DNA of 64,000 nt, taken from positions 5,092 through 69,091 of the forward strand of contig JAGRNR010000009.1 of NCBI GenBank assembly GCA_020440645.1, read 5' to 3'. Position 1 is the first letter of the stretch, and each line of letters starts with the position of its first letter. The notes under the pieces were generated by a model. That model ran no database searches. It saw only the letters and a list, made by a program, of their open reading frames with translations, and was not told where the DNA came from. Position numbers and translations under genes: made by a program. This stretch comes from a bacterium (GTDB lineage: Bacteria; 4484-113; JAFGCY01). Shown one piece after another: positions 36,716-62,564 of the stretch.

Positions 36716-37869
36716 CACTTGTCGACCTCCCCGATCATGATGTCGAGGCTGCCGTAGATCACGAACAGGTCCGCCAGCAGGTAGCCGCGGCACAGCTCGT
36801 CCAGCAGGAACAGGTGGTACAGGCTCGGCGCACGCAGGTGCATGCGGCTCGGGCGGTTGCTGCCGTCGCTGACGAGTGTCAGGCCGAGCTCGCCGCGCGG
36901 GCTCTCGACCGCCGTGTAGACCTCGCCGCGTGAGACCTGCATCGCAGCGAAGTCTGGGCTGACATCCGCCGCCCGCAGCTCGCCGTTGTCAATGTAAGCC
37001 AGGCAGTGCTCAATGATGCGCAGGCTCTCGCGCATCTCGACGAAGCGCACGCGGTAGCGGTCCAGCACATCGCCATACTCGCCGGTCGGCACATGCAGCT
37101 CCAGCTCGCCGTACATCGCATAGGGCTGGTCGCGGCGCAGGTCATGCGCGATCCCGCTGCCGCGCAGCACGGGCCCGGTGGCACCGTGCTCGAAGGCGAA
37201 CTCGGGCTCGAGCGTGCCGATCAGCTCGCTGCGGTTGACCCAGATCGCGTTGTCAGAGAAGAAGTCCTCGTATTCATCCAGCCGGCCCTGGAACCACAGG
37301 CAGAATGCCCGCACATGGCCGCTGAAGTCCTCCGGCGGGGCAGTGCGCACGCCGCCGGGCACGATCCAGCCGTGGTGGTGGCGGTGCCCGCTGAGCATCT
37401 CCAGCAGGTCGAGCAGCATCTCGCGCTCGCGCAGCGAGATGAAGATCGGGGTGTAGGCGCCGGCCTCCAGGCCGAGGTTGCCAAACCAGAACAGGTGGTT
37501 GCCGATCCGGCTCAGCTCCAGCACAAGGGTGCGCAGCCACTGCGCACGGGCCGGAACCGTGATCCCCTCGATGCGCTCGATGGCGTCCGCCACCAGCCAG
37601 TCCGCATTGCTGCCGGCCAGCCACTCGCAGCGGGACAACAGCCCCGCCGCCTGGGCGTAGTTGCGCTGGGTCACCAGCTGCTCCACGCCGCGGTGCATGA
37701 AGCCGACCTCCGGCGTGATGCGCTCGATCAGCTCGCCGTCCGCCTGTACCCGCAGTTCCAGCGGGCTCGGCAGGCTCGGATGCTGCGGGCCGACGGAGTA
37801 GACCAGCTTCTCGGTCAGCAGCGGGTCGCGGCGGATCTCGACACGGCGATCAGAGCTGCGCGTCATCAA
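36715..37869 (-). CDS. NuoD (49 kDa)-like subunit lacking quinone-site His/Tyr and any NiFe-binding cysteines
   Basis: GPQHPSLPSPLELRV… (canonical GPQHP.AHGV), …GFMHRGVEQL…, …RIGNHLFWFGN…, and C-terminal …YGSLDIMIGEVDK (complex-I-type ending, no CxxC). 384 aa. Overlaps the nuoC stop by ~20 nt. Confidence 0.85.
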   Translation of the reverse strand: MMTRSSDRRVEIRRDPLLTEKLVYSVGPQHPSLPSPLELRVQADGELIERITPEVGFMHRGVEQLVTQRNYAQAAGLLSRCEWLAGSNADWLVADAIERIEGITVPARAQWLRTLVLELSRIGNHLFWFGNLGLEAGAYTPIFISLREREMLLDLLEMLSGHRHHHGWIVPGGVRTAPPEDFSGHVRAFCLWFQGRLDEYEDFFSDNAIWVNRSELIGTLEPEFAFEHGATGPVLRGSGIAHDLRRDQPYAMYGELELHVPTGEYGDVLDRYRVRFVEMRESLRIIEHCLAYIDNGELRAADVSPDFAAMQVSRGEVYTAVESPRGELGLTLVSDGSNRPSRMHLRAPSLYHLFLLDELCRGYLLADLFVIYGSLDIMIGEVDK

Positions 37870-38656: not shown

Positions 38657-39025
38657 TTGATTCATTATCTTGCGAGCCTGGATAATTTCTATAATTCAAA
38701 TCGTCAGACCCAGTCTGTACCGGTTGAATTCAAGATTCCAGGTCAAGGCATGCCACAGCAGCATGAATTAATTACTGCAATCCTCGGACTTGGCGTGTTG
38801 TTGCTGATGATCGTGCAACGCCGCCAGCTGCGGCTCATCCCTGACTACCGCTGGCTGTTCCTCTCCTACTGCCTGATCCTGCTGGCCTGGCTGCTGACCA
38901 TTGCGGAAGATTACTGGCTGCCGGTCTACATGAACCTGCTGGAGCATATCTGTTACCTGGCCAGCGCAGCGCTGGTCGCCTGGTGGACACAGAAGTTCCT
39001 CAGAAGGGAAGCGCCACAGCAATGA
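38657..39025 (+). CDS. Small membrane protein (2-3 TM), translationally coupled to the downstream sensor kinase
   Basis: 122 aa. TM segments (LITAILGLGVLLLMIV; WLFLSYCLILLAWLLTIA; ICYLASAALVAWW). Its TGA (39023-39025) overlaps the ATG (39022-39024) of the next gene (caATGAgc). Confidence 0.5.
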   Translation: MIHYLASLDNFYNSNRQTQSVPVEFKIPGQGMPQQHELITAILGLGVLLLMIVQRRQLRLIPDYRWLFLSYCLILLAWLLTIAEDYWLPVYMNLLEHICYLASAALVAWWTQKFLRREAPQQ

Positions 39026-40836
39026 GCATGCTGCTGACGGTGTTTGACCTGCTGAGCCTGCTGGCCGTGCTGTCTGCACTGTGGCTGGCGGCAGCCAGGC
39101 GGATTGCCGGCCTGCGGCGTGACTACCTGTGGTGCCTGATCATCCTGCTGGTGGTGCTGGGTCTCAACTTCCTCAGCAACCTGCTGGACAACAGCGGGCT
39201 GAGCCCCTGGCTGGAGCGCTTCGAGGACTACCCCGGACTGCTGCAGCCGGTGTTCTGGGGCATCCTCCTGATGAGCCTGGTGCAGGACCGCGCCCTGCGC
39301 CGCACCGAGCTCTCTGAACAGCGGCTGCGCGGCCTGCTGGACGCGATGCGTGACGGGGTTGCCACTATTGACCCGGGTGGCGTGTTCCGCTTTGCCAACC
39401 CGGCGGCCGCGGAAATCCTCGGGGTTGCCCACGGCAGCCTTAGCGGCCGCAGTCTGGACGAGTTCTGGCTGGCTACCGAATCGCATACTTGCCGGATGCT
39501 GCCACATTCCCCGGGCCAGGATTACAGCGCCTACGAATGCGGCATCCGCCATGGCAGCGGCGACAGCCTCGTGCTGCTGCTGCAGGTCTCGCCGATCCCG
39601 GGCCAGCCCCGCCAGCGCCTGCTGTTCATGCATGATGTGACCCCGCTGCGCCGGGCCGAGCACAGCCTGCAGCAGGCCCAGGCCCAGCTCGGACAGGCCC
39701 AGCGGCTGGAGGCGATCGGCACGCTGGCCAGCGGCATCGCCCATGACTTCAACAACATCCTGTTCGCGATTTCCGGCAACAGCCAGATCGCGCTGGATAC
39801 TGAGGGACTGACCGTCGATGCGCGGGAGAGCCTGCGCGAGATCGACACCGCCAGCCGCCGCGCCTCCGACCTGGTGGCGCAGATCCTCAACTTCAGCCGC
39901 AGCGAGAAGAGCCGGACACGGGACCTGTTGCCACTTCCGGTTGTCAAGGAAGTGCTGCGCCTGCTGCGCTCCACCGTGCCGCCGCAGGTCAGCATCCAGC
40001 TCAGCCATGACGAATCGACGTGCCGGATCCATGCCGACCCGACCGACCTGCACCAGCTGCTGATGAACCTCTGCACCAATGCGATCCAGGAGATGGCGGT
40101 GGAGGGCGGGACGCTGCGGGTCCGGTTGGAGTGCAGCAATCCACCGCCGACACTGGCCGAGCGGGGAATGCTGCAGCCTAAACCACACCTGATGCTCAAG
40201 GTCAGTGACACGGGGGGCGGTATTCCACCGGATGCGCTGCCGCACATCTTCGAGCCCTTCTTCACGACCAAGCCAAGCGGTGAGGGCACCGGTCTAGGGC
40301 TGTTCGTTGTCAGCGGGATCGTCAAGCGCCTGCAGGGACAGATCGAGATTGACAGCGAACCGGGCCATGGCAGCAGCTTCACGGTCTGGCTGCCGCTGTC
40401 CAGCGGGGCCGCTGATGCCGACGATGCCGGGCCGGGGCAGGCCACCGGCCGCGGCCGGGGCCGGCTGCTGGTGGTTGACGACGAGCCGGCGGTCAACCGG
40501 GTGCTGGCGCTGATGCTCGGCCAGCTCGGCTACAAGGTGACAACCTATAGCGACAGCTACCGCGCGCTCAGTGAGTTCCAGACCAACCCGGAGCAGTACG
40601 ACCTGCTGCTGTGCGACATCTCGATGCCGGGCCTGCGCGGCGATGAACTGGTGAAGCGGATACGCTCCGTTCGCCCAGGCCTGCCGGTGGTGCTGTGCTC
40701 CGGCAATCCGGATGTTCTGCCTCCGGGCAGTGCAACTGAACTGGGTGTGCATGCAGTGCTTAAGAAACCGGTTGACAAGCCACAGCTGGCGGATTGCATC
40801 GCCGAGGCACTTGGCAGTAACCGTGCACAGGCCTGA
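39022..40836 (+). CDS. Hybrid sensor histidine kinase (TM sensor, PAS, HisKA, HATPase_c, C-terminal receiver)
   Basis: ORF 38983..40836. Start placed at MSMLLTVFDLL… (ATGA coupling). Two or three TM helices, PAS-like region (LLDAMRDGVATIDPGGVFRFANPAAAEILG…), H-box (LEAIGTLASGIAHDFNNIL), N/G boxes (LMNLCTNAIQEM…; DTGGGIP…FEPFFTTKPSGEGTGLGL) and a receiver (RLLVVDDEPAVNRVLALMLGQLGYKV…DLLLCDISMPGLRG). Confidence 0.85.
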   Translation: MSMLLTVFDLLSLLAVLSALWLAAARRIAGLRRDYLWCLIILLVVLGLNFLSNLLDNSGLSPWLERFEDYPGLLQPVFWGILLMSLVQDRALRRTELSEQRLRGLLDAMRDGVATIDPGGVFRFANPAAAEILGVAHGSLSGRSLDEFWLATESHTCRMLPHSPGQDYSAYECGIRHGSGDSLVLLLQVSPIPGQPRQRLLFMHDVTPLRRAEHSLQQAQAQLGQAQRLEAIGTLASGIAHDFNNILFAISGNSQIALDTEGLTVDARESLREIDTASRRASDLVAQILNFSRSEKSRTRDLLPLPVVKEVLRLLRSTVPPQVSIQLSHDESTCRIHADPTDLHQLLMNLCTNAIQEMAVEGGTLRVRLECSNPPPTLAERGMLQPKPHLMLKVSDTGGGIPPDALPHIFEPFFTTKPSGEGTGLGLFVVSGIVKRLQGQIEIDSEPGHGSSFTVWLPLSSGAADADDAGPGQATGRGRGRLLVVDDEPAVNRVLALMLGQLGYKVTTYSDSYRALSEFQTNPEQYDLLLCDISMPGLRGDELVKRIRSVRPGLPVVLCSGNPDVLPPGSATELGVHAVLKKPVDKPQLADCIAEALGSNRAQA

Positions 40837-43453: not shown

Positions 43454-45553
43454 CTAGTTCACGGTGATGAACTTGTAGGCGATGCCCGTTTCCCCGAGCG
43501 AATCCGTCACCCGCACGGCAAGTGTGTAGAATCCGGGTGAGTTGAGGGTAGTGTTGATCGTGCTGTTCTCGAAGGTGGCTTCGAAGAAGCCGTCACCGTC
43601 CAGGTCATAGTCATAGATAACCGACAGCCCGTCCTCATCGTCCGAGCTCAGGCTGGCATCCAGCATTACCAGCACCGGTGCAAACCCAGTGTCCGGTGAT
43701 CCAGTCAGCACGGCGTTGGGCGGATGGTTCTCCAGACAGGTCAGCTTGTAGGCGCCCGGGCCGGTCTCGATGGCGGAACCGGGCACGAACACCTTCAGGT
43801 AGTAGCGCCCGGCGGCCGGCAGGCTGAAGTTGATGTATTCACGGTCCACGTTGTCAATCGATTCAATCAACGGAACGACCAGGTCTGACTCATGGTACAG
43901 AGCCAGTGAAAGGTCGACCGTCGCCGAACTGAAGTCCACCCAGAAGCTGGCGGTGGTGGCCCGGTCGGCATCGATCGCGTACCAGTCCTCGGTGTCGCTG
44001 CCGCCGACGCTAGCACTCCAGTCGCGGATATGCTTCGCGTAGTTGAGGAAACCGCCGAGGCTGTCCGCCTCCGTCTCGGCATTGTTGGGCTCAGTCTCCT
44101 GCGGGTCCACCCCGTTTGACACGATCACCTTCAGGCTGGCGGTGGCCTCCCGCTCACCACTGTCGGTGATGCGCACCGTTGGCGTGAATTCGCCGGGCAG
44201 CGTGTAGGTGATGTCACCACCGGGGTTCAGGCCGAGGTCATAGTCAAACGTGCCGTCACCCTCGAAGTCCCATTCGTACTTGACGATGTCATTGTCGGGG
44301 TCCACGAGGCCGCTGGTGTCGATGTAACGGATGATTCCGTTCTGCAGGCAGTAGTAGTCGATGCTCAGTTCAGCAGTGGGCGGGTTCTCACCGCTGATCG
44401 GCGTGATCGTGACATCCGTCGTGGCCGTGGCACTTTCCCCGAAGAAATCGATCACCATCACCCCGACGGTGAAGGTGCCGGCCTCGATGAATTCGCGGTA
44501 GGCGAAGGGGACCGGGGTCTGCAGCTCATGGAACCCGTCGTCGTCAAGGTCCCAGCGGTAATTGACGATGCCGCCATCCGGGTCCATGCTGTTGAAGGCG
44601 TCAAAGTTGATGGCCTGGGGCAGCGGACCGCCGTTCGGCAAGGCCACGATGTCCGCGATCGGTGGCAGGTTGCCCGGTTCACCGGTCACATTGATCGTGG
44701 CGGTGGCTTCGCCGGTGCCACCTTCGTTATCAACCACGCGCAGGGTGCAGGTGAAGGTGCCGACATGGTCGTAGTCGTGGCTGGGGGTCGGCCCGAGGTC
44801 ACCGGGTGTGAAGTAGATTGGGTCCTCGAATGACCAGTGGTACTCGGCGATCGTGCCATCCAGGTCGGAGCTGGCGGAGCCGTCAAACCCTGTGGTGAAG
44901 AAGTACTGGCCGCTGTCCTGGGCCACGGTGAAGCTGGCGGTCGGGGCGAAGTTGCCACCGAGCCGCACACGGGTCAGCTCGAAGCTGCCGCTGCCGGTCA
45001 GCAACACGCAGCAGTAGATCGCGTCGAAGTTCGAGAAATAGCCGTCCAGCGAGCCGAAGTCGAAGTGGTCATCGTCATTGCCAAGCTGCCATTTCCAGCG
45101 GCCGCTGCCGTAATCCGTGATGCCGACGTAGTACTCGCCGGAGTCCGGGCGCACGCCCCACTGCAGGTCGACCTGAGCCTCCCTTGCGAATCCCGGCAGG
45201 TGGTAACCGTAGATGCCCCAGCTCACATCCAGCTTCGGCGGGTTGGCGGCGGGGTCCCAGTCCGGGGCCATCAGCAGGCTGTCCCCGAACACGATCGCAT
45301 TCTCGCGGCTGCCGGGCGTGATGATCTCCGCACCCTTGCGGATGTAGTCCGCCGGTGTATCACTGAAGCTGCGCCCAACGGCGGGCAGCTCGGCCGGGGC
45401 TGGAAGCTGGGCAAGCAGGTCCTGCGGCAGTTCAACCGGACCGGACTGGCGCTCAGGCGTGGCAGCCTTTTCCTGCAGGTTGGCAGCGCCGGATGAACAG
45501 GCTGCCAGGCAGAATAGGCAGCCTGCCAGCAGAAGGGCAAATGAAGCACGCAT
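43454..45553 (-). CDS. Lipoprotein of a tandem paralogous family: conserved N-terminal domain, PKD repeats, C-terminal PPC (pre-peptidase C-terminal) domain
   Basis: Lipobox LLAGCLFCLAACSSG. Family N-domain (…SFSDTPADYIRKG…LLMAPDWDPAANPP…VSWGIYGYHLPGF…). Several PKD-like units (…YHWSFEDPIYF…; …YRWDLDDDGFHE…; …YEWDFEGDGTFD…; …YDYDLDGDGFFE…). PPC-like segment (ETEPNN…DWYAID…GRYYLKVF…GAYKLT). Confidence 0.8.
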   Translation of the reverse strand: MRASFALLLAGCLFCLAACSSGAANLQEKAATPERQSGPVELPQDLLAQLPAPAELPAVGRSFSDTPADYIRKGAEIITPGSRENAIVFGDSLLMAPDWDPAANPPKLDVSWGIYGYHLPGFAREAQVDLQWGVRPDSGEYYVGITDYGSGRWKWQLGNDDDHFDFGSLDGYFSNFDAIYCCVLLTGSGSFELTRVRLGGNFAPTASFTVAQDSGQYFFTTGFDGSASSDLDGTIAEYHWSFEDPIYFTPGDLGPTPSHDYDHVGTFTCTLRVVDNEGGTGEATATINVTGEPGNLPPIADIVALPNGGPLPQAINFDAFNSMDPDGGIVNYRWDLDDDGFHELQTPVPFAYREFIEAGTFTVGVMVIDFFGESATATTDVTITPISGENPPTAELSIDYYCLQNGIIRYIDTSGLVDPDNDIVKYEWDFEGDGTFDYDLGLNPGGDITYTLPGEFTPTVRITDSGEREATASLKVIVSNGVDPQETEPNNAETEADSLGGFLNYAKHIRDWSASVGGSDTEDWYAIDADRATTASFWVDFSSATVDLSLALYHESDLVVPLIESIDNVDREYINFSLPAAGRYYLKVFVPGSAIETGPGAYKLTCLENHPPNAVLTGSPDTGFAPVLVMLDASLSSDDEDGLSVIYDYDLDGDGFFEATFENSTINTTLNSPGFYTLAVRVTDSLGETGIAYKFITVN

Positions 45554-45675
45554 CTTTATTCCTCACTGCGCCCGGATACTCTCCAGCAAGCTGGAGGGGC
45601 AGCACAGAATTCTAACTGAAAGAATCACCAAACTGAGCTTCGCGGCAAGCAGGTCCCAGCTACCCCTGGCACGGT

Positions 45676-47790
45676 TCAAATGGGTAAGGCAGTTACTATG
45701 ACGAAGTCTGTATCCGCGAGGCCCCACTCATCGATTACGCGCACGCTGACGACGATTGCACCGGGTACTGTGATCTGCGTGTCATAGGTGGGCTGGAACT
45801 GGCCGGTCACTTCAAAGATCCCGTCACCGTCGACATCAAACTGGTATTCAGTGATGTAGCCCATCTCAACTGTGCTGGCAGATGCATCCAGCGAAATGTC
45901 AAATGGAACCGACCCAACGAGCGGATCAGCGGACAAAGCGGCGTGCGGGCCGTCATAGTTGCGGCAGCGGAATGTGTAGTCACCGGGGCCCTTCGCCAGT
46001 GCTGAGGGATCTATGCTCACACGGATCAGGTACTGGCCGGCGGAGGGCAGCACGAACTTGAGGATTTCACTATCCAAGATGCCGTGTGCGCTGGCCAATG
46101 GGTTGTCGGTGTCGCCGGCGGAATACAGGTCCAGGCGCATGTCTATCTCGCTGCGGAGGAAATCCGCGACGAACGCCACTGGACCGCTGCGGTCGGATTC
46201 GAAGGAGTACCAGTCCGCGCTGTCGCCGCCGCCCTCATCCAGTGAGCCCTTCCAGTTGCAGATCCCCTTGGAGTAGTTCATGAAGCCGGTGAACTCCTCG
46301 GCCTCGCCCGGGGTACCGTTGGGTTCAGTTTCAGCCAAGCCGGAATTCGGCCCGATCCGCAGCGGTATGCTGGCAACGTCTGTCCGGCCGCCGCTGTCCG
46401 TCACGCGGAATGTCGCGTTGAAAGTCTGCCCTGTCTGGGCATAGGTCGCAACGAATTCCTCACCGGGGGCGAAAGAATAATCGAATATGCCATCACCCTC
46501 CAGGTCCGTCTCGAACGAGACGATGTCATTGTCGGGGTCGCTGCTCTCGCTCCAGTCTATCCTGAAGGCACCCGGTGAGTTGAAGCTGTAGTCGGACTTG
46601 ACGACGATGGTCGGCGGCTCAGTACCATCAACCGGGTCAATCACCACCGTGGTTGAGGCGGTGCTAAAGCTGCCCTGGTTGTCAATCGCCATCACGGACA
46701 CCTCATAGCTGCCGGGTACGGCGAAGAACCACTTCTGCACGGCACTGCCAAAAACCTCGAAATGCCCGTCTCCGTCGAAGTCGAAACGGTAGCCGGCTAT
46801 CGAGCCGTCCGTGTCGCTGCTGCCGCTGCAGTCGAAGTTGATCCACTGCGGGACCGGTCCACCGCTGGTGTCAGGCACGATCGAGGCAAGCGGTGCAGCG
46901 TTGCCATCCACCAGGGCGACCGAAATCGGGATGCTGAGCTCGGCGGTGGCTCCCTCATTGTCCGTCAGGCGCAGTGTGCAGGTGTACTCGCCCGCGTGGT
47001 CGTAAGTCCAGAAAACCACCGGGGCCGGGTACCGGAAATCCGTGTAGACCGGATCCTCCATTGACCATTCGTAGCCTGCAATGCTGCCGTCCGGATCGTG
47101 GCAACCCGAGGCGTCGAACTGGACCTCCAGAGAGCCTGTTCCACTGGTCTGGTTCGGGATCAGGCTGGCCACGGGCGGCAGGTTCTCCCCCAGACGCAGC
47201 CGGCTGAGATTGAAGTTGCCCTTGTCCGCGACCAGGATGGTGAAATAGATGTCGCCATTCCCGGAGAAGTAGCCGTCAAGGCTACCGAAATCAATGATGT
47301 CCTGATCCGTGCCCTGGAACCATTGCCAGCGATTGCTGCTGAAGTCGCTGACACCGATGTAGTGGCGCGCTCCGTCCGGCCTGGGGCCTTCCCACAGTAC
47401 CTGCAGTTCCGGCTGGCGCTGGAAATCAGTGATGTTGAAACCTTAAATCGCCCAGCTCAGCTCACGTGTCGGCGGCTCGGCCACGGGCTCGTAATCAGCA
47501 ACCATCACAAGCATGTTCCCGACAATGCTCGCATTGGCGAATGCATCAGGCTGATAAGTCTGATATCCATCCCGCAGGAAGTCCTCCGGGACATTGCTGG
47601 CGCTGCGCTGCTGCTGAGGCAGGCTGTCCAGTCCCGGCAGCCCGTCAGCCAGCGAGGGACTGAGCTGTACAGCCTCAGCCTGCGCGGAAACGGGCAGGTC
47701 AGCCGCCTGCTCCGGATGGGCCGGCTGGCTGCTGCATGAAGCCGCGAGCAGCAGGCAGCCTGCGCACGCGATGGCGAGAAGAGCTTTCAT
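45676..47790 (-). pseudogene. Paralog of the PKD/PPC lipoprotein family interrupted by a single in-frame TAA (Tyr codon position). Candidate pseudogene or sequencing error.
   Basis: ORFs 47443..47790 (signal peptide + N-domain start, ends …LSWAI*) and 45676..47172 are in the same frame. Reading through the TAA at 47443-47445 gives …LSWAI*GFNITDFQRQPELQVLWEGPRPDG…LRLGENLPPVASLIPNQTSGTG…, colinear with paralogs (…LSWGIYGFNIADY…). Only one stop separates the two parts. Confidence 0.7.
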
Positions 47791-47903
47791 CTTTATTCCT
47801 TGAACCTGCCTGGTTCCTTATGGCAGTGCAGGAGGCTGGGAAAATTCTACTCGATCAGTCTCAATCATTGACTTTCCCAGTAAAGCAATCCGCCAGCGAT
47901 CAT

Positions 47904-49997
47904 TCAGGGGGCGATGCCCGTCACTGTCACCGTGGCGATTGACTCCATTCCCAGCATGTCCTGTACCTTGACGCCGAGCTCCTGCGGTCCTTCCCAGCTG
48001 ACGGTGCCAGTACCGAGCCATCCGCCGGGCTCGCTCTCGAAGATCCCGTCGCCATCCATGTCAAAGAAGTAGATCAGGCCCTCCAGGTAACGGTCATAGC
48101 TGCGGCCCGCGTTGAGCACAACCTCGGTCCCCGTCTCCACTACCGTTGCGGAGGCCGTGACAAAAGCCACCGGCTTGGAGGGGTCCCAGAAGTCCAGCTT
48201 GTAGCCGCTGTCCTGCCCGGCCTCGCCTGCCTGCTTCGTGAACACGCGCAGGAAGTAGTCCCCCGGCGCCGTAATGAGAACGGACATAAACTCGTTGTCG
48301 GTATCCGAGTAGCTGAAGAACAGCGGGTTCACCAGGTCAAGAGGGCTGTACATCTCAATGTCCATGTCCATGAAACTGTGCGTGAAGATCAGGTTGAACC
48401 ACAGCTGGCCGTTGTGCGCGGCATGGATCACATACCAGTCCTCGGTATCCTCAGCGAACTTGAGCTGGCCGGGAAAGTCGCGCACCCGCACACACTCGTT
48501 GCCAAAACTGCCCAGGCTGATCGCCGTCTCCGGGCTGTCATTCGGTTCTACCTCCGGCTGGCCGGAGAATGGCGTGACCATCACTGGACAGGTTGCCGTG
48601 TCACTGCGTCCGCCGCTGTCAGTGACCCTCACGGCGACGTTGAACACGCCGCCATCCTGGGAATAGGTCACGTTATTCACGGGATCGAGCCCTGAATCAA
48701 CGTCGAACGTGCCGTCACCCTCGAAGTCCCATTCGTACTTCACGATGTCATTGTCAGGGTCATAGGATCCCTGTGCGGTGAAGTACCGTGCACCCGCAGT
48801 GTTGTCATACCAGTAGACGGCCTCCAGCTTTGCCACCGGAGGCTCCGTGCCCTCCACGGGCAGCACCTCGATCTGCATCGTGGCCGTGTCGACGGCACCG
48901 AACTCATCAATCACCATCACGCTGGGGTTGTAGGTGCCGGCTGCGATGTACAGAGCCTTGAACACCGGGCTGCCAAAAGTGAACTGCTCGAAGTACCCGT
49001 CCTCGTCAATGTCCCAGCGGAATGTCATGAAACCGTTCTCCGGATCCGTGCTGTCCTGTGCATTGAGCGTGACGGAAAGCGGAACCAGGCCGGATACCAC
49101 ATCAGATTCAGAGTAGATATCGGCCACAGGCGGGTCATTGCCAGGCACGGCGGTGACGCTGATCGGAATGACAAATTCCGTCATTCCGCCTTCGAGGTCA
49201 TGCGCCCTGCCTATGCAGTCGTACTCGCCGACATGGTCATACTCCCAGTACAGGAACGGACCGGCGGGCTCGAAGATCGGCCCACCCTCGGCGGACCATT
49301 CAAAGAAGGTCAGAGTGCCATCCGGATCGTAGCTGGCTGAGGCATCGATGTTGACCGTCAGCTTGCCCTGGCCGCTGTCGTTGTCAATCGTGTAGTCGAT
49401 CACGGGCGGGAAGTTGCCGCCGAGGCGCAGCCTGCTGAAGGTGAACTGGCCCTCCGTTGCCAGCAGCACCACCACATACAGGTCGCCGTTGGCAGAGAAA
49501 TAGTCAGCCAGCCCCGGGAAGTCCACGGTCCCGTCCGCCGTACCCTGGCGCCACTGCCAGTGTCCGCTGGAGTAATCACTGACCCCGATGTAGATGCCGG
49601 AGCTGGCGGGCGCAGTGCCATTCCACTTTGCCTGGATCTCCGTGCCGCGCTGGTAGTCTGCGATGTTGAAACCGTAGATCCCCCAGCTCAGTCCATGCAT
49701 CGGCGGGTCGCCCTGCGGATCATAGGTCGGGCTCATCGAGAGCTTGTCACCGGTCACCTCGGCATTCATCTTCGCCGATACCTTGTAGATGTCGGCTCCC
49801 GTGCGGATGCAGGCTTCCGGCGTATTGCTGGTACTGCGCTGCATGGCAGGCAGGGCAGAAATGGCCGGCAGCTGCGATTCAAGCTGCGGCAGGACAGCGT
49901 CGCCTGCCGGTTGGTTTACCTGGCCGCCACTTCCGCTGGAGCAGGCTGCCAGCAGCAGCATCGCTCCGGCCAGCAGGCCACTGAGCTGTCTGAACAT
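47904..49997 (-). CDS. Lipoprotein of the same tandem family (N-domain + PKD repeats + PPC domain)
   Basis: Lipobox LLLAACSSGSGG. …RSTSNTPEACIRTG…LSWGIYGFNIADYQRG…. Repeated …F.WD.DEDGYFE…/…YEWDFEGDGTFD… PKD units. C-terminal …EPNDSPETAISLG…DWYVIHAAHNG…GDYFLRVF… PPC-like domain. Confidence 0.8.
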   Translation of the reverse strand: MFRQLSGLLAGAMLLLAACSSGSGGQVNQPAGDAVLPQLESQLPAISALPAMQRSTSNTPEACIRTGADIYKVSAKMNAEVTGDKLSMSPTYDPQGDPPMHGLSWGIYGFNIADYQRGTEIQAKWNGTAPASSGIYIGVSDYSSGHWQWRQGTADGTVDFPGLADYFSANGDLYVVVLLATEGQFTFSRLRLGGNFPPVIDYTIDNDSGQGKLTVNIDASASYDPDGTLTFFEWSAEGGPIFEPAGPFLYWEYDHVGEYDCIGRAHDLEGGMTEFVIPISVTAVPGNDPPVADIYSESDVVSGLVPLSVTLNAQDSTDPENGFMTFRWDIDEDGYFEQFTFGSPVFKALYIAAGTYNPSVMVIDEFGAVDTATMQIEVLPVEGTEPPVAKLEAVYWYDNTAGARYFTAQGSYDPDNDIVKYEWDFEGDGTFDVDSGLDPVNNVTYSQDGGVFNVAVRVTDSGGRSDTATCPVMVTPFSGQPEVEPNDSPETAISLGSFGNECVRVRDFPGQLKFAEDTEDWYVIHAAHNGQLWFNLIFTHSFMDMDIEMYSPLDLVNPLFFSYSDTDNEFMSVLITAPGDYFLRVFTKQAGEAGQDSGYKLDFWDPSKPVAFVTASATVVETGTEVVLNAGRSYDRYLEGLIYFFDMDGDGIFESEPGGWLGTGTVSWEGPQELGVKVQDMLGMESIATVTVTGIAP

Positions 49998-50091
49998 GCG
50001 CTTGTCCTCGCACTTTACCGGGTTCCGTCCGCACAGATTCTAACCCAGGACAAACCAGGACAAGCAGTTGCATCGCAGTCCGGCCTGCAGC

Positions 50092-52914
50092 CTAGGCTTC
50101 CGGCAGGACCTCCATCATGTAGTCCTGCTCGAGCTTCGGGTTCGAGCTGGCCCACACGTAGGCATTGATGTAGTAGGTACCGGGCGCGGTGAAGTTGTAC
50201 GTGATCGACTCGTTGTCAGTGGTGCTTGTCGATGAGCCGATCTGGGACGTGCCGTCGGTGTCATACAGCTTCAGGTCGAGGTCGGACAGCGCATCGGTGA
50301 AGTACATGTTGATCACATAGCTGCCCGGTGTCACGATCTGGATCTTCATCCAGTCCGACTCGTCGCCATCCAGCGGCCCGTCCGGCCCGAGGTTGCCGAA
50401 CCAGCCGGTGAAGTCCGTGCCGGGGAACATGTTGCCGGTCAGGTAGTCGTCATTGTCCTCAACCTCGTCGTAGGTCAGGCTGACCGAGATATCCACCGAG
50501 TCGGTGCCACTGGCACCGTACTGGTCCGTCACGCGCACCATCGCGCTGACTGTGCCGGCCGAGTAGTAGGTATGGGTCACGAAGGGGTCGGTGGTGGTCT
50601 CGTCCCAGGTGCCGTCTCCGTTGTAGTCCCACTCGAACTTCGTCAGGTCATGCCCGTCCGGGTCGGTGCTGCCGCTGGCATCGAAGTCCACCACAAGCGG
50701 GGCCTCGCCACTCAGCGGGCTGGCGGTCAGGACCACATTCGGGTTGCCGTTGATCGAGTTGACGTTTACGGTCTTCGTCACCTTGCCACCCTGGTCGTCG
50801 GTCACGCGCACCTTGACCGCCACCGTGCCGGAAACCGTCATGTCGCCCATGAAGACTGAGGTCGTGCCGGTGTCCTGCTCGAAGCTGCCGTTGCCATCGA
50901 CGTCCCACTCGTACTTGGTGATCGTGCCGTCCGGGTCGTAGCTGCCCGTCGCATCCAGCGTGACCGGGAAGGGCACGTTGCCACTGAGCGGGCTGACGTT
51001 GAAGGTGACCACCGGCAGGCGGTTCACGCTGGCATCGAAGGTGTAGTCCGCCGGACCGCGGTCAGTCGCGCTGGCGTAGATGTAGATCCGGATGAAGTAG
51101 GTGCCGGTCTTGTCAGCCGGGATCGAGTAGCTGATCGACTCCGTGTTGCCCGTGCCGGTGGAGGATGCCACCGAGGTGCTCAGGTCGGATTCATGGAACA
51201 GGCGGATGTCAATGTCAGCCTCGGCATCGATGAAGGCCAGGTTCAGCTGCACCTCCAGTGGCTCGGGTGCCGCGAACACAAGCCAGTCCTCCTCGCTGCC
51301 GTCATAGCCGCCCACTCCGAGGTTGCCACGCCAGCCCTGGATGCCCTTCGCATAGCCGCCATAGCCCGGCAGCTGGTCAGCGGAAGCGCTGTCGTCATTC
51401 GCCTCGGTCTCGTGGTAGTTGCCGGCGCTGTCAACGATGAGCGTGGCCTGGAAGGTGTCATTCAGGCCGCCGCTGTCGGTCACGCGCAGGACCGGGGTGT
51501 AGGTGCCGATGCCGGGGTAGGTATGCTGGGCAGTGGCCGTGCCGCCGTTGTCAAGCTCGTAGGTTCCGTCACCGTCCCAGTCGAACTCGTACTTGACGAT
51601 GTCGTCGTCCGGGTCAGTAGAGACGGAGGCGTCGAAGTTGAACACGCCGTCATCGGTGCGGAAGCCGTAGTCCACCAGCATCAGTGCGTCCGGCGGGCTC
51701 TGCACCCCGACCTCCATCACCTCGATCAGCAGGTTGTCAGTCGCCGTGCTGCCGAGGTCGTCAGTCACGCGAAGCTTGATGTCGTAGCTGCCTGGATCGT
51801 TGAACGTTGTCGATGTGCTGTCGACCACGCCGGTGTCCTTCTCGAAGCTGCCGTTGCCGTCGAGGTCCCATTCGTACTTGACGATCGTGCCGTCCGGGTC
51901 GGAGCTGCCTGTGCCGTTGAACAGCACGGTGAGCGGTGCGGAACCGGTGGTCTTGTTGGCGCCGAGCACCGCCGTCGGCGGGTCGTTGTCAATGACAGGG
52001 GTGACGCTGACAACGGTCTCCGCGATGCGCTGGGCGCCCTCATTGTCAGTCAGCTGCACGCGCACGAGGAAGTTGCCTGTCTGGTTGTAGACATGCTGCG
52101 TGGTCTGGTCGGTACCGGGGGCACCGAAGCCGTCACCGGTGAAGTCCCATTCGAAGCTTGTGATGTCGCCGTCGATGTCATAGCTCGCACTGGCGTCGAA
52201 GTTGACGGTCAGCGGCACGGTGCCGCTGGTCGTGTCAGCCTGCAGGTCCGCCACCGGTGCGATGTTGTCACCGAGGCGCAGCTGGCCGAGGCTGTAGCTG
52301 CCCTGCCCGGTCAGCACCACGGCGATGTACAGGGTGTCCGTCGGGGAGAAGAAGTCCGCCAGGTTGCCGAAGTCCATCGCCGTGCCGGCGGCCGGTCCCT
52401 GGAACCACTGCCAGCGGCCGGCATCGAAGTTGCTGATGCCGATGAAGTAGTTGCCGGCGGGCGGCGTGGTGCCATCCCACCACAGCTGCAGGGTGCCGGG
52501 GCTGACATAGCCGGTCAGGCCGAAGCCGTAGACCGCCCAGGCCAGGTCGCTGGTGGGCGGGTTGGCGGTGCGCACCCAGTCCGGCGTCATCACGAGGAAA
52601 TCCCCGTCCACACTGGAGAAGGACTTCATTTCCGGCGTGATCAGCTGCGAACCAAAGCGGATGAAGTCCTCCGGCGCATTGCTCGAGCTGCGCTCGACGG
52701 CCGGCAGGTCTGAAAGGTCCGGCACCCCGTCCATGGCCACGGTGATCTCCGGCGCGGGCTTGGCATGTTCGATGCTGTATTCGAGGACCGGCTGTTCCTC
52801 ATTGAACTCGAACTTCTCGCGCTTGAAGAGTACCTGGTCTCCGCCCGACCCGCCTCCGCAGGAGGTGAGCAGGATTGAGACGGCGATGGCCCAGACATAT
52901 AGTGCATTTCTCAT
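50092..52914 (-). CDS. Largest member (940 aa) of the tandem lipoprotein family (N-domain + about 6 PKD repeats + PPC domain)
   Basis: Lipobox ILLTSCGGGSGG. …RSSSNAPEDFIRFG…FLVMTPDWVRTANPP…LAWAVYGFGLTGY…. Numerous …YEWD.DGNGSFE…/…FEWDYNGDGTWD… PKD-like units. Two PPC-like segments (…ETEANDDSASADQL…DWLVFAA…GTYFIRIY…; …VEDNDDYLTGN…DWMKIQI…GTYYINAY…). Confidence 0.8.
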   Translation of the reverse strand: MRNALYVWAIAVSILLTSCGGGSGGDQVLFKREKFEFNEEQPVLEYSIEHAKPAPEITVAMDGVPDLSDLPAVERSSSNAPEDFIRFGSQLITPEMKSFSSVDGDFLVMTPDWVRTANPPTSDLAWAVYGFGLTGYVSPGTLQLWWDGTTPPAGNYFIGISNFDAGRWQWFQGPAAGTAMDFGNLADFFSPTDTLYIAVVLTGQGSYSLGQLRLGDNIAPVADLQADTTSGTVPLTVNFDASASYDIDGDITSFEWDFTGDGFGAPGTDQTTQHVYNQTGNFLVRVQLTDNEGAQRIAETVVSVTPVIDNDPPTAVLGANKTTGSAPLTVLFNGTGSSDPDGTIVKYEWDLDGNGSFEKDTGVVDSTSTTFNDPGSYDIKLRVTDDLGSTATDNLLIEVMEVGVQSPPDALMLVDYGFRTDDGVFNFDASVSTDPDDDIVKYEFDWDGDGTYELDNGGTATAQHTYPGIGTYTPVLRVTDSGGLNDTFQATLIVDSAGNYHETEANDDSASADQLPGYGGYAKGIQGWRGNLGVGGYDGSEEDWLVFAAPEPLEVQLNLAFIDAEADIDIRLFHESDLSTSVASSTGTGNTESISYSIPADKTGTYFIRIYIYASATDRGPADYTFDASVNRLPVVTFNVSPLSGNVPFPVTLDATGSYDPDGTITKYEWDVDGNGSFEQDTGTTSVFMGDMTVSGTVAVKVRVTDDQGGKVTKTVNVNSINGNPNVVLTASPLSGEAPLVVDFDASGSTDPDGHDLTKFEWDYNGDGTWDETTTDPFVTHTYYSAGTVSAMVRVTDQYGASGTDSVDISVSLTYDEVEDNDDYLTGNMFPGTDFTGWFGNLGPDGPLDGDESDWMKIQIVTPGSYVINMYFTDALSDLDLKLYDTDGTSQIGSSTSTTDNESITYNFTAPGTYYINAYVWASSNPKLEQDYMMEVLPEA

Positions 52915-53103
52915 GAGGAATTCCTCTGGTTTCAGCGTGGAATACGGGTAAACATGCTGATTTTACCGGATTTTATGGTGACACATGTGAAAGATTAATT
53001 GTGTACCGCCGGTCGGTTTCATCTCAATTTGAAGTACCCTTGAAATTGTGGAAGAATTGTAAGAGGGCAGGCAAGCATGCCTGTCCGGCTGGCTGGACAA
53101 GCA

Positions 53104-56100
53104 ATGAAACGAAGCATCTTCACTCCTATGATCCTGTTTGTGCTGCTGATTGGCGCATGCGCCTCACAGCAGCAGCTCAGTGCTGAACCGGGTGCAGGCG
53201 GCACTACGGTGTTCGATAACGACGCAGGCAGCCCGGGCCTCGTGGATGACCCCGGCATGCTGGCCCTGCCCGGTGAGCCGGGCAACCTGGCCGGACTGCG
53301 CAATGTCGCGGACCCGGAGGCTGAGCTGGAACTGCCGCGGCGCACGGCGCGGGCCGGGCAGGACTTTGCCGCCAACCGCCTGGTGGTGGTCTGGGAGAAC
53401 CAGCCGGACCCGGCGGTGCAGCAGCAGTACATGGGCGGCGGCCCGCAGGCGGACCTCAGGCGGGCGACGGACAACCATCCGCTGGTGGACCACCCCTTCT
53501 ACCGCCGTGTCAGCCACAACTTCGCCCAGCACTACGGCCTCAGTGAGTTCGGCCGGGTGTTCTACAAGGATGTCAACTTCACTGCATATGAAGTGCCCGG
53601 CCTGACGGATGTCAGCCAGCTGGACGCGCTGATGCAGAAGCTGCTCAGCGAGAACCGGGGCCTCGTGCGCGAGGTGAACTACGACTTCTACGTGGACATC
53701 AGCCAGACGGTGGAAACTGAGCCGGTGCCGCTTGATCAGGAGCGCATCCAGCAGGTCATCCAGTCCTCTCCGGCTGCACCACAGCGCATGCGTGAGCAGA
53801 ACCGCAGCACGAGCGCTGCCCCGAATGACCCGATGCACCTGAACCTGAGCGGCAGCGACGGCGGCACCTGGGCAAACTGGCGCATCGGTGCGGTCGACGG
53901 CCAGGCCTGGGACAGCGGGGTGGGCAGCCATGACGTGGTGGTGGCGGTGGTGGACACCGGTGTGCGCTACACGCATGAGGACCTCGCTGACAACGCGATC
54001 GAGCCCGCCGCGGAATTCCCGTACAACGAACCGGGCATCCTGACGGACGTGATCAACAAGGACAACGACCCGTTTGACGACCACGGCCACGGCACCTACT
54101 GCTCCGGCATCGTCGGCGCCGTTGGCAACAACGGGCTCGGGCTGGCCGGTGCCAACCAGCAGGTCAGCATCCTGCCGGTCAAGGTGCTCAGCGGCGGCGG
54201 CAGCGGCAGCGAGACCCAGGTGGCGGAAGGCATGCTGCTGGCGGACTACCTCGGGGCGGACATCATCAGCATGTCGCTCGGCGGGGATTTCCCGGACCGC
54301 ATCATGCAGCTGGCCGCCAAGCAGTGCGACAGTGACGGAGTGCTGGTGGTGGTGGCCGCCGGCAACAACAACTGGGGCGGGCTGTTCTACCCGGCCTACT
54401 ACCCGGAATGCCTCGGGGTCGGTGCGACCACACTTGTCAACGACTCCAATGACCAGGACTTCAGCCAGGTGGACGGCGAGATCCCGACGGCTGACCGGTA
54501 CGACGCGCGCGCCAACTTCTCCAACTACGGCAGCTGGGTGGACATCGCTGCCCCCGGCGTGCAGGTGCGCTCGACATCAAACGGCTCGGACACTTCATAC
54601 GGCGCAAGTGGTGCCGGCACCAGCTTCGCCTGTCCCTACGTGGCCGGCTGCGCAGCGCTGCTGTGGGCGCATATGGGGCCGGACAAAAGCAACCATGAGG
54701 TGCGCGGCATGCTGCAGGGCAGTGCCACCGTGATGGACCACCTCAACAACGGTGCCAACCCGCGCGGCTTCATTGACAACGACACCAACGGCACGGTGCG
54801 CTTCGTGAACGTCTGGGAGGCGATCAAGCTGTACGATGCCGGGCCCTATGAAGCGCCGGCTGTCAGCTGGACCAGCCCGCTGGAGGGAGCGAGCGTCAGC
54901 GGCCTGACCGACCTGCAGCTGGAGATCACGGGCGGCAGCGGCAACATCCTAAAGGTGTCCTTTGAGACCCCGACGCGGCACCTCGGCACGGTGACCGAGG
55001 AGACTGGCGGCTTCTGGCAACTGAGCTGGGACAGCGCGTTTGAGTTCAACGGCGGGCAGACCATCACGGCGACGGTGACGGACGACGTCGGGCACATCAT
55101 CAGCCTGCCGCTGCATGTCAACTGTGACAATGCGCACATCGTGCCGGAGTGGCAGGAGGGCTTCGACGGCCTGGCGGATGACACGCTGCCGGCGGGCTGG
55201 TCCGTGCTGGATGGCAACGCCGGTACCAACAACACCATCTGGGGCGCTGACAACTCAGATGGTGGCGATGCCTCCCCTTCGATGCACTCCAGCGGCAGCA
55301 CGGGGAACTACGCCCCCAACAGCAATGACTGGCTGTATGCGCCGGTGATCGACCTGACAGGCGTTGCCAGCGCCTCGCTCGAGTTCAACTACCTGCACCG
55401 GATGGCCAATGACGGCGGTTTCCTGTTCATCACGGCGGATGACGAGACCTACGCCGGCGACGGATTCTTCGGCGGTGGCAACCCGGACTGGGACAGCTAC
55501 AGCTTTGACCTGACGCCGTTTTGCGGCGCGGAAGTGCGCATCTTCTGGGTGATCGACTGCAATGGCGGCAACCAGGCCGGCGGGATGTGGATTGACGACG
55601 TGCACATCACCGTGCCGGAGGGCACGCCGCCGACCGTCAGCATAGACAGCCCGCTGGCCAATGCCAGCGTGGACGGCATCGTGGACGTGCAGCTGACCCT
55701 GAGCGATGATACGGTGGCGGTCGAACTGATCGGCCTGCCGGTCAGTGCCCCGCCGCTGCTGTTTGACAGCATCCCGGACAACGACCCCGAGAACCCGACG
55801 AAGACATTCACGGCCACATGGGACAGCCGCCAGACCGGCACCGGAAATGTGCTGCTGCGCGCGCGGGCCTATGATGATGAAAGTGACAACGGCGGGCTGG
55901 ATGACCTGGCGGCCGAGGACAGCGTGGTGCTGGACGTGACAAACCCCGTGGCCGGCCCCGGCTGGCTGGAGGACTTCGAGGATGTGGTGGACCTCGGCGG
56001 GACTGACAACGGCCAGCCGGATGGTGCGTGGTTCCGTATCGGCGCTGACCCGGTGCGCTGGCGTACGGGCCTGCAGGCCCCCTGGCGCGGCCTGGGCCAC

Positions 56101-56775
56101 GCCTACTTCGGCCCTGATGGCGGCGGAGACTATGGCAACGATGAACTGGGCTGGCTGTACAGTCCGCTGATTGATCTGGCTGCTGCGGCCCGCCCGCGGA
56201 TCCGCCTGCAGCACAGCCTCGACGTGGACGCTGCCAATGCCGACCGTGCAGTGGTCTACATGGTGCGTTATAACGGCAGTGAGGTGCTGGAAGCCAACCT
56301 GTTTGAACAGCGCAATGACACTGCTGGTTACCAGCCGCTGCTGTTCAACCTTGACGGGATGTCCCAGCAGCCCTTCCGCCTGCTGTTCCTGTTCGACTCC
56401 GATGGCAACAGCCAGGCCGGCAGCGGCTGGAGCCTGGATGACATAGAGGTAATGGATGCTGATCCCTTCCTGCTAGGCCTGACTCAGCCGCGCGGCTATC
56501 CCGGCCAGACGGTGGTGCTCAATGGCAGCAACTTTGGGGTGCTGCAGGAGGACAGCTTCGTCAGCTTCCGCAGTGAGGGTGGCGGCAGCACGCTTGCAAC
56601 AGTCAGCTCATGGAGCAATACGGAAATCAGCGTGGTCGTGCCGCCGGATGCTGATAGTGGCGATGTGTTCGTGACCGTGCTGGGCTTTGAAAGCAATGCG
56701 CGCCACTTCAGCCGGCTGCTGGACCCGACTGAGCTGACCGGCATCGGACAGTTCAGCCTGTCTGACGGCATCTGA
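53104..56775 (+). CDS. Giant secreted subtilisin-like serine peptidase (S8 family) with long C-terminal beta-domain extensions ending in an IPT/TIG-like domain
   Basis: ORF 53077..56775. Likely start MKRSIFTPMILFVLLIGACAS (lipoprotein signal). Catalytic triad motifs VAVVDTGVRYTHEDL (Asp), HGHGTYCSGIVGA (His), GTSFACPYVAGCAALL (Ser). About 700 C-terminal residues of beta-rich domains, last ~90 aa IPT/TIG-like (…GYPGQTVVLNGSNFG…VSFRSEGGGSTLATVSSWSNTEISVVVP…). Confidence 0.85.
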   Translation: MKRSIFTPMILFVLLIGACASQQQLSAEPGAGGTTVFDNDAGSPGLVDDPGMLALPGEPGNLAGLRNVADPEAELELPRRTARAGQDFAANRLVVVWENQPDPAVQQQYMGGGPQADLRRATDNHPLVDHPFYRRVSHNFAQHYGLSEFGRVFYKDVNFTAYEVPGLTDVSQLDALMQKLLSENRGLVREVNYDFYVDISQTVETEPVPLDQERIQQVIQSSPAAPQRMREQNRSTSAAPNDPMHLNLSGSDGGTWANWRIGAVDGQAWDSGVGSHDVVVAVVDTGVRYTHEDLADNAIEPAAEFPYNEPGILTDVINKDNDPFDDHGHGTYCSGIVGAVGNNGLGLAGANQQVSILPVKVLSGGGSGSETQVAEGMLLADYLGADIISMSLGGDFPDRIMQLAAKQCDSDGVLVVVAAGNNNWGGLFYPAYYPECLGVGATTLVNDSNDQDFSQVDGEIPTADRYDARANFSNYGSWVDIAAPGVQVRSTSNGSDTSYGASGAGTSFACPYVAGCAALLWAHMGPDKSNHEVRGMLQGSATVMDHLNNGANPRGFIDNDTNGTVRFVNVWEAIKLYDAGPYEAPAVSWTSPLEGASVSGLTDLQLEITGGSGNILKVSFETPTRHLGTVTEETGGFWQLSWDSAFEFNGGQTITATVTDDVGHIISLPLHVNCDNAHIVPEWQEGFDGLADDTLPAGWSVLDGNAGTNNTIWGADNSDGGDASPSMHSSGSTGNYAPNSNDWLYAPVIDLTGVASASLEFNYLHRMANDGGFLFITADDETYAGDGFFGGGNPDWDSYSFDLTPFCGAEVRIFWVIDCNGGNQAGGMWIDDVHITVPEGTPPTVSIDSPLANASVDGIVDVQLTLSDDTVAVELIGLPVSAPPLLFDSIPDNDPENPTKTFTATWDSRQTGTGNVLLRARAYDDESDNGGLDDLAAEDSVVLDVTNPVAGPGWLEDFEDVVDLGGTDNGQPDGAWFRIGADPVRWRTGLQAPWRGLGHAYFGPDGGGDYGNDELGWLYSPLIDLAAAARPRIRLQHSLDVDAANADRAVVYMVRYNGSEVLEANLFEQRNDTAGYQPLLFNLDGMSQQPFRLLFLFDSDGNSQAGSGWSLDDIEVMDADPFLLGLTQPRGYPGQTVVLNGSNFGVLQEDSFVSFRSEGGGSTLATVSSWSNTEISVVVPPDADSGDVFVTVLGFESNARHFSRLLDPTELTGIGQFSLSDGI

Positions 56776-62457: not shown

Positions 62458-62564
62458 AGCCATACCTCGGACCAGTTGGTCCACGGCTGCGATTATACAA
62501 TGCGCGCAAAGGCGGAAGGCCGATTCTGACTGAATGAATCGCTTATTCGTGAATCAATGGACGA

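Follow-up and report, generated by a model that had tools for sequence, protein, structure and literature searches.

How should one read a tandem array of lipoproteins that carry the accessory domains of secreted proteases but no protease? The question is raised by positions 43454-52914 of a 64,000-nucleotide stretch of DNA (contig JAGRNR010000009.1, positions 5,092 to 69,091 of the forward strand), hereafter the window, from an uncultured sludge bacterium of the candidate phylum UBP7_A. Four paralogous genes, which we call g1 to g4, encode proteins with a lipobox, a conserved N-terminal domain (the N-domain), PKD repeats and PPC domains. Our answer is that (i) the N-domain is, as judged from sequence, a new and previously unannotated domain family; (ii) the PPC segments are, by the same kind of evidence, collagenase-type collagen-binding domains (CBDs); and (iii) the four proteins would be membrane-tethered, non-catalytic surface capture or adhesion proteins headed by a generic presentation or anchoring module, a composite reading that we hold to be evenly poised between right and wrong. 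Feature coordinates are collected in Table 1.

Four paralogous lipoproteins and their N-domain

A first-pass annotation of the window, made from the DNA letters alone, had described four consecutive minus-strand genes that share a lipobox and an N-terminal module and lack a peptidase domain. We confirmed the genes, at 699 aa, 704 codons (g2, disrupted), 697 aa and 940 aa. They are colinear end to end, with pairwise identities of 34-40%; averaged over the paralogs, the N-domain is 44% identical, the PKD domains 38-45% and the PPC domain 32%. The lipobox is borne out in all four (LAAC, AASC, LAAC and LTSC in g1 to g4), with the Cys at residue 19 in each, Ser or Gly at position +2 after it, and a tether of 23-44 residues rich in Ala, Pro and Gly. 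Likewise, neither Pfam nor NCBIfam (E≤0.01) assigned a peptidase family to g1-g4; the NCBIfam 'M36' matches cover only the PKD region of that model and score 18-29 bits against a cut-off of 1500.

Pfam gave no match within the first ~200 residues of g1-g4. The shared module proposed there is real, with 41-50% identity between pairs and 34 invariant columns, although it spans ~150 aa and not ~170. To describe it, we searched 1.84 billion representatives of 50% identity clusters exhaustively with HMMER, using the N-domain as query; 771 of them matched at E≤1e-3, of which 217 reached E≤1e-10. Word-index searches with the 4-sequence and 40-sequence N-domain alignments gave one fragment each and were uninformative for the family, and a genome scan with the four-paralog alignment reaches close motifs only and under-samples the taxonomic breadth of the domain.

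The figures for position, copy number and lipobox refer to the best 150 of the 771 representatives. In these proteins, mostly 600-950 aa long, the N-domain starts at a median residue of 57 and never past residue 105, and all but one contain a single stretch of it. A PROSITE-type lipobox is present in at least 105 of the 150; 20 others are N-terminally truncated, and most of the remainder have a Cys-containing variant. Among the 105 that fit the pattern, residue +2 is Gly, Ser or Ala in 88 and Asp in one. The tether between the Cys and the N-domain has a median length of 34 aa and is Ala/Pro/Gly-rich. Conserved positions comprise an LPxPxxL lead-in, RxxS, G19, P42, AxAIYxF, W77, G90, L140 and RxG146, together with a WxG(L/I)(A/S)(D/N) motif and an RW(D/Q)W motif in which W99 is invariant; R98, D/Q100, W101, Y60 and F62 are also conserved. 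Forty diverse N-domains had no meaningful Pfam family match at E≤1, no NCBIfam model matched the domain, and no PDB chain matched its profile better than E=0.3. The first-pass annotation had not recognised the module, and neither do these databases.

What follows the N-domain varies. Among 67 sampled N-domain proteins we counted PKD in 46, SBBP in 7, PPC in 3, PQQ_2 in 3, Peptidase_C1 in 2 and GSDH in 1, besides BNR/carrageenase-like segments, CarboxypepD_reg and more; PKD, where present, usually lies directly C-terminal of the N-domain. Divergent paralogs in related genomes carry PKD with PQQ-like propellers, or three copies of CarboxypepD_reg; only two of them lack a plausible lipobox. The genes often stand in tandem: four in the window, about 4-5 at locus L008, three at L010 and 3-4 at L016. 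The N-domain is thus no peculiarity of g1-g4. Because it stands at the front of at least 771 protein clusters, whose payloads vary, PPC being one in only 3 of the 67, we read it as a generic N-terminal lipoprotein module and not as a partner specific to PKD or PPC. It is single-copy, lies next to the anchor and precedes unrelated payloads, and for these reasons it most likely does a job common to all of them, such as presentation or anchoring.

We note that at least one such gene is misannotated at its start. In the nearest genome, CP060262.1 ('HK-STAS-UBP7_A-1', a complete 4.1-Mb chromosome that NCBI labels Planctomycetales), UNM10046.1, an N-domain protein with a PQQ (pyrroloquinoline quinone)-dependent sugar dehydrogenase, is annotated from an internal codon as 379 aa; P0035, the 547-aa form in other assemblies, has the lipobox and N-domain that this annotation omits.

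Could the N-domain be more than a presentation module, namely a lipoprotein sorting or anchoring 'address tag', read by dedicated envelope machinery or a dedicated envelope polymer, for the export and retention of more than 700 protein clusters? We consider this unlikely. SLH domains and the C-terminal domain of the type IX secretion system (T9SS) are terminal address or anchor domains common to diverse surface cargo, and the N-domain resembles them in being a single conserved, β-rich module that occupies the same end of many unrelated extracytoplasmic proteins in one lineage. Unlike them, it is N-terminal and accompanied by a lipobox, matches no sorting domain in Pfam or NCBIfam, and has no dedicated partner gene in the loci examined. 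At the distant family loci L015-L018 no partner gene recurs, and the other neighbours are unrelated housekeeping genes.

An AlphaFold model of the g4 N-domain is an all-β jelly roll that resembles carbohydrate-binding modules (CBMs) and Cry domain III, with a predicted local distance difference test score (pLDDT) of 91.3. Foldseek returned TM-scores of at most 0.5 and one match only at E≤1e-3; there is no close structural relative. Many of the best structural matches are CBM6, CBM35, CBM36, CBM61 and CBM16 modules, and the model has the β-jelly roll typical of CBM6, CBM35 and CBM36. With these three and with Cry δ-endotoxin domain III it shares a galactose-binding-like jelly roll at a sequence identity of 4-13% and with no HMM (hidden Markov model) match; it differs from them in its fixed membrane-proximal position and in having motifs of its own (LPxPxxL, AxAIYxF, WxG(L/I)(A/S)(D/N) and RW(D/Q)W). 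Because the fold is CBM-like, we suggest that the N-domain may do its work via a glycan of the envelope. Two other identities were tried and rejected. A C-type lectin-like domain had only matches at E 0.3-1.2 over a shared 'WIGL...WxW', and the model is all-β; a degenerate PPC domain received an hhalign probability of 0.1% (E 0.49).

The structural matches invite a further reading, in which the N-domain is a conventional CBM for an environmental polysaccharide and the family consists of surface glycan-binding proteins of a SusE/SusF-like type; that several payloads are β-propellers or BNR/carrageenase-like fits this as well. We nevertheless find it quite improbable. None of the 40 N-domains matched a CBM family HMM at E≤1, and the TM-scores are low. 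True CBMs vary in position and copy number, unlike the N-domain, which in the 150 proteins read is an anchor-adjacent single copy and has peptidases, dehydrogenases and PPC arrays among its payloads; a membrane-proximal site is also poorly placed to reach an external substrate. SusE and SusF are surface glycan-binding lipoproteins of Bacteroidota, and g1-g4 resemble them as non-catalytic lipoproteins with tandem β-sandwich modules whose genes lie beside degradative enzymes. The resemblance does not extend to sequence, and the distal modules of g1-g4 are of protease type (PKD, PPC) and not starch-binding CBMs. No SusC/SusD-type gene was present among the window open reading frames (ORFs) scanned, which cover part of the window.

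PKD repeats and collagenase-type PPC domains

The first-pass annotation had described 3-7 PKD units followed by a C-terminal PPC domain. Pfam supports both domain identities, and the numbers and order were close but not exact. Mapping with HMMs built from the paralogs gives four PKD copies and one PPC in each of g1-g3 and five PKD copies and two PPC in g4; since another PKD comes after the PPC in g1-g3, the PPC is not their C-terminal domain. Pfam PKD_4 scores 80.7-185.4 bits in all four against a cut-off of 27, which places them in the PKD families (PF00801/PF18911). The PPC model (PF04151, cut-off 25.9) is passed by g1 (28.3 bits) and by g4 (43.2 bits, two stretches) only. In g2 and g3 the segment falls below the Pfam cut-off, and we assigned it from paralogy, as it is colinear with and 25-38% identical to the others; the paralog HMM that located it is circular as statistics.

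A profile of 12 PPC segments (A5) identified the closest known relatives. Against the PDB it matched the collagen-binding domains of the clostridial collagenases ColG and ColH, at E=1e-15 for 5iku, 1.3e-8 to 1.7e-8 for 4hpk, 1nqj and 1nqd, and 0.007 for 3jqw. The alignment is in register over an N-terminal ExExN(D), D(W/Y)YxF and GxYYLxVY, and the segments share the β-sandwich fold of ColG s3b and ColH s3. All five PPC copies of the array carry the E-x-E-x-N-D linker motif (ETEPNN, ETEPNG, EVEPND, ETEAND and EVEDND); its N6 never varies, conservation of E2 and E4 is ≥90%, and the motif aligns to KEKENND and KEMEPND of ColG. In the ColG structures the residues of this linker bind calcium. The PPC identity proposed at first is thus upheld and can be narrowed to the collagenase type.

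In M9B collagenases the PPC domains serve to bind collagen and need calcium to do so (PMC6168687), and ColG and ColH have PKD-like domains followed by CBDs (PMC4356367). The absence of a peptidase from g1-g4, which had been put forward as an oddity, is therefore not anomalous: PKD plus PPC is the substrate-recruitment segment (PKD s2 and CBD s3) of ColG and ColH of Hathewaya (Clostridium) histolytica, here as a free-standing protein (PMC4356367, PMC6168687). Unlike the secreted collagenases, g1-g4 have no M9 catalytic or activator module nor any other peptidase domain, are predicted to be lipid-anchored at the N-terminus, contain 4-5 PKD copies instead of 1-2, and in g1-g3 have the extra PKD after the PPC.

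Table 1. Location in the window of the array genes, their domains and the other sequence features discussed
Feature	Position	Strand	Description	Basis
g1	43454..45553	-	699-aa lipoprotein: signal peptide/lipobox Cys19, tether, N-domain, PKD x3, PPC/CBD, PKD	ORF; Pfam PKD_4 1.4e-37, PPC 28.3 bits
g2	45676..47790	-	704-codon paralog, g1-type architecture, one nonsense codon	reading-frame translation; intact orthologues
g3	47904..49997	-	697-aa lipoprotein paralog, g1-type architecture	ORF, Pfam, family HMM
g4	50092..52914	-	940-aa lipoprotein: N-domain, PKD x3, PPC, PKD x2, PPC	ORF; Pfam PPC 43.2 bits, 2 stretches
N-domain of g1	44942..45406	-	residues 50-204, LPxPxxL lead-in included	alignments A1/A3, conservation map
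N-domain of g2	47173..47640	-	residues 51-206	alignment
N-domain of g3	49404..49871	-	residues 43-198	alignment
N-domain of g4	52255..52725	-	residues 64-220 (70-220 modelled); jelly-roll β-sandwich	alignment; model, pLDDT 91.3
PPC/CBD of g1	43745..44101	-	residues 485-603	begins with ETEPNN Ca-linker motif
PPC/CBD of g2	45973..46335	-	residues 486-606	paralog HMM, identity and colinearity
PPC/CBD of g3	48198..48557	-	residues 481-600	paralog HMM, identity and colinearity
PPC/CBD-1 of g4	51040..51414	-	residues 501-625	Pfam and family HMM
PPC/CBD-2 of g4	50116..50478	-	residues 813-933	Pfam and family HMM
In-frame stop in g2	47443..47445	-	TAC→TAA, codon 116; replaces the conserved Tyr of 'SW(A/G)IYGF' in the N-domain	
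TAGAAT upstream of g1	45609..45614	-	−10-like hexamer, 55 nt upstream	
TAGAAT upstream of g2	start 47849	-	53 nt upstream	
TAGAAT upstream of g3	start 50042	-	39 nt upstream	
S8 subtilase	53077..56775	+	Peptidase_S8, Big_7, TIG; own lipobox LLIGAC; divergent from array	Pfam

Proposed capture at the envelope and the neighbouring subtilase

The composite reading can be stated as a series of steps. The proteins g1-g4 would be acylated at Cys19 and hung on the Ala/Pro/Gly-rich tether; next would come the N-domain and then a PKD stalk bearing one or two Ca2+-type, collagenase-like PPC domains. The N-domain would keep this payload at the envelope or display it there, and its likeliest means would be to bind either a glycan of the envelope or some envelope component shared as a partner; the distal PKD/PPC portion would capture, or adhere to, an insoluble polymer, probably proteinaceous or fibrillar. 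Possibly the array feeds the adjacent S8 lipoprotein protease, with the PKD and CBD segment acting in trans that in clostridial collagenases acts in cis. We infer lipidation, surface exposure, ligand, N-domain role and any protease cooperation from sequence. The suggestion that these are surface adhesins or binding proteins, or else partners of the subtilase, survives in its first half as probable; the partnership is only possible.

Several observations weigh against this reading. First, the pair of Tyr residues at 'VYKY' in ColG, which is important for collagen binding, is kept as an aromatic pair only in the g4 PPC domains (YxY and YxW); in g1 and g3 a lone Phe stands there, and in g2 a Ser. 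The ligands may therefore differ among the paralogs and need not be collagen-like; the environmental sludge host likewise means that collagen itself need not be the ligand. Second, the likeness of the N-domain to the CBM fold is generic at these TM-scores. Third, the neighbours of a distant family member with PKD and PPC (L015) are BatA/VWA and radical-SAM genes and include no protease, so that the link to the S8 gene may be simple inherited synteny. Fourth, PQQ-dependent sugar dehydrogenases, one of which is the N-domain payload noted above in the sister genome, are usually periplasmic, and some or all N-domain proteins may accordingly face the periplasm instead of the outside.

That last point belongs to a different reading, in which these are periplasm-facing lipoproteins, the N-domain docks to peptidoglycan or the periplasmic face of the envelope, and PKD/PPC acts inside the periplasm. 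The sugar dehydrogenase fusion agrees with it, as do BamB-like PQQ propellers among the payloads, and a CBM-like fold could bind glycan strands. However, PKD domains, collagenase-type CBDs, papain-like peptidases and SBBP propellers, all of which occur as payloads, are typically extracellular modules, and proteins of 700-1100 aa with extended stalks are a poor fit for the periplasm; both points are considerations and not tests. We judge a periplasmic location very unlikely.

The S8 subtilase reported beside the array is confirmed and divergently oriented. Its lipoprotein signal, read from the translation, is …FVLLIGAC|AS. We note that its translation probably begins at a Met 9 codons inside the longest ORF, where the CP060262.1 annotation (1223 aa) also places the start, and that Pfam leaves a stretch of ~450 residues between Big_7 and TIG unassigned; the N-domain HMM did not match the protein. 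Three species have the S8 gene next to g4 (protein identity 61-79%), and an M28 peptidase gene lies nearby (60604-62484).

This arrangement would suit a protease-utilisation locus, comparable to a polysaccharide-utilisation locus (PUL) and directed at proteinaceous polymers, with g1-g4 as substrate-capture partners or processed substrates of S8, and such a scheme could be combined with the capture and adhesion reading. The conserved S8 neighbour, the M28 peptidase and the fact that S8 and g1-g4 are all lipoproteins by sequence speak for it, as does the role of PKD and PPC as accessory recruitment domains of collagenases and many secreted proteases (PMC4356367, PMC6168687). Yet the synteny comes from three fairly close species, in which genes keep their order in any case; L015 lacks a neighbouring protease, and at L008, where there are several N-domain genes, no S8 homologue occurs within 16 kb. 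Each paralog also has its own −10-like box, and nothing indicates an operon shared with S8. On balance we regard the scheme as possible but rather unlikely.

The −10-like boxes had been given another meaning, as the hexamer TAGAAT upstream of at least three paralogs was taken to suggest co-regulation. The hexamer is indeed present upstream of g1, g2 and g3 (Table 1); the corresponding sequences are TAAAAT upstream of g4 and TATAAT upstream of nuoA. The window contains 12 copies of TAGAAT, where ~9 would be expected, and several of them are upstream of unrelated genes. The 12-mer CAGAATTCTAAC quoted in the first-pass annotation occurs once, and a scan for σ70 and terminator consensus sequences gave nothing beyond the shuffled expectation. 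As a generic −10-like hexamer, TAGAAT does not speak for co-regulation, and to judge by these counts it is best read as a generic −10 element of separately transcribed genes.

As modular non-catalytic surface binding proteins, g1-g4 are ordinary in kind and their mechanism is unsurprising; the novelty is the N-domain. It is a sizeable, confidently foldable family that marks lipoproteins of the almost unstudied candidate phylum UBP7_A, and its definition would improve the annotation of UBP7_A genomes and offer a handle on how this lineage builds its cell surface. If it were an anchoring or export signal, the surface proteome would be predictable from sequence alone. The PKD-CBD arrays beside a lipoprotein subtilase also hint at how a sludge bacterium could capture proteinaceous floc material, an idea that can be tested.

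Broken copies, selection and the surrounding sequence

The gene g2 is called as two ORFs of 115 and 498 aa. Translation in a single frame revealed one TAA and a frame that is otherwise continuous over 704 codons, so the earlier description of a disrupted gene holds, with this one stop as the whole lesion and nothing larger. Orthologues in CP060262.1 and JAGRNT010000005.1 are intact, 704 aa long and 97% identical. The TAA is found in two sample assemblies (L002 and L003), and three other genomes (L004, L005 and L006) have TAC. Because the stop recurs in two sample assemblies, a sequencing error is unlikely, with the reservation that both come from the same study and perhaps from the same population.

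Other broken copies exist in the family. The g1 orthologue in L001 (ENA ERZ27309175 k141_364442) has an independent in-frame stop at codon 153: the TGG of the invariant Trp in RW(D/Q)W has become TAG, and past it the reading frame runs on normally. This change and the TAA of g2 are both single-base changes at conserved aromatic codons. One N-domain gene, present at L016 (3717-6284) and at L017 (3017-5584), is broken into three reading frames that cover HMM positions 3-52, 50-79 and 80-148; it looks like a frameshifted pseudogene in a tandem cluster, since the split is identical in two independent samples.

The ratio of nonsynonymous to synonymous substitution rates (dN/dS) against the CP060262.1 orthologues is 0.04 for g4, 0.13 for g3, 0.21 for g2 and 0.26 for g1; for comparison, it is 0.09 for both S8 and M28. 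The synonymous rate (dS) ranges from 0.04 to 0.34 along the locus. At the whole-gene level g1-g4 are under purifying selection, and the diversification for which a dN/dS check had been proposed is rejected at that level. Given its ratio, the stop in g2 is probably recent.

These data bear on whether g1-g4 are an antigenically or functionally diversifying surface family, that is, contingency genes switched by mutation and recombination under phage or grazer pressure. Tandem arrays recur in several genomes, broken copies recur as described, and nucleotide identity around g2 is mosaic, all of which favours this idea. Against it stand the low dN/dS ratios, the age of the four paralogs (35-40% identity), each with its own conserved orthologue, and the lack of repeats or homopolymer tracts at the stop sites. 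We consider diversification highly improbable as an account of the array.

The mosaic itself is seen in positions 45737-48136 (g2 and the 3' end of g3), which are 95-100% identical in nucleotides to 12600-14738 of L006 (JAGRNT010000005.1, from another UBP7 species), whereas the genes flanking the segment are only 62-84% identical to that contig. This reflects either a recent exchange of g2 between species that live together or a chimera in one of the two assemblies. The neighbourhood has a second mosaic piece: an ankyrin-repeat gene (57978-60308) has 56% identity to its counterpart in CP060262.1, which is otherwise 95-100% identical to the window, and 87% to the more distant L006.

The window is sequence-identical to ENA scaffold WANG18-1_SAMN08389165_METAG-scaffold_9. 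UBP7 metagenome-assembled genomes have been reported from a saline activated-sludge plant (PMC8495973); published literature on UBP7_A is almost nonexistent, and NCBI labels the array proteins 'PKD domain-containing protein' or 'hypothetical protein'. The window and CP060262.1 share the gene order Ank, RegProp, S8, then divergently g4-g3-g2-g1, then nuoA-nuoB, and JAGRNT010000005.1 and JAHEFU010000208.1 keep it up to their contig limits. Among the compared loci, L004 and L006 have the whole run from Ank to g1, and L007 has part of it.

The nuo genes of the window are split: nuoA-nuoB are followed by a 265-aa ORF without a Pfam match, a TfoX-like gene on the opposite strand, and then nuoC onwards. 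A hybrid histidine kinase/response-regulator gene (617 aa, 38983-40836) lies between the TfoX-like gene and nuoC; CP060262.1 has no such gene, and the spacing there is ~300 bp. The NuoH-like ORF (34940-36793, 617 aa) and the NuoJ-like ORF (32439-33485, 348 aa) have Pfam domains that cover only residues 252-526 and 199-344, respectively, and may have long N-terminal extensions or mis-set starts.

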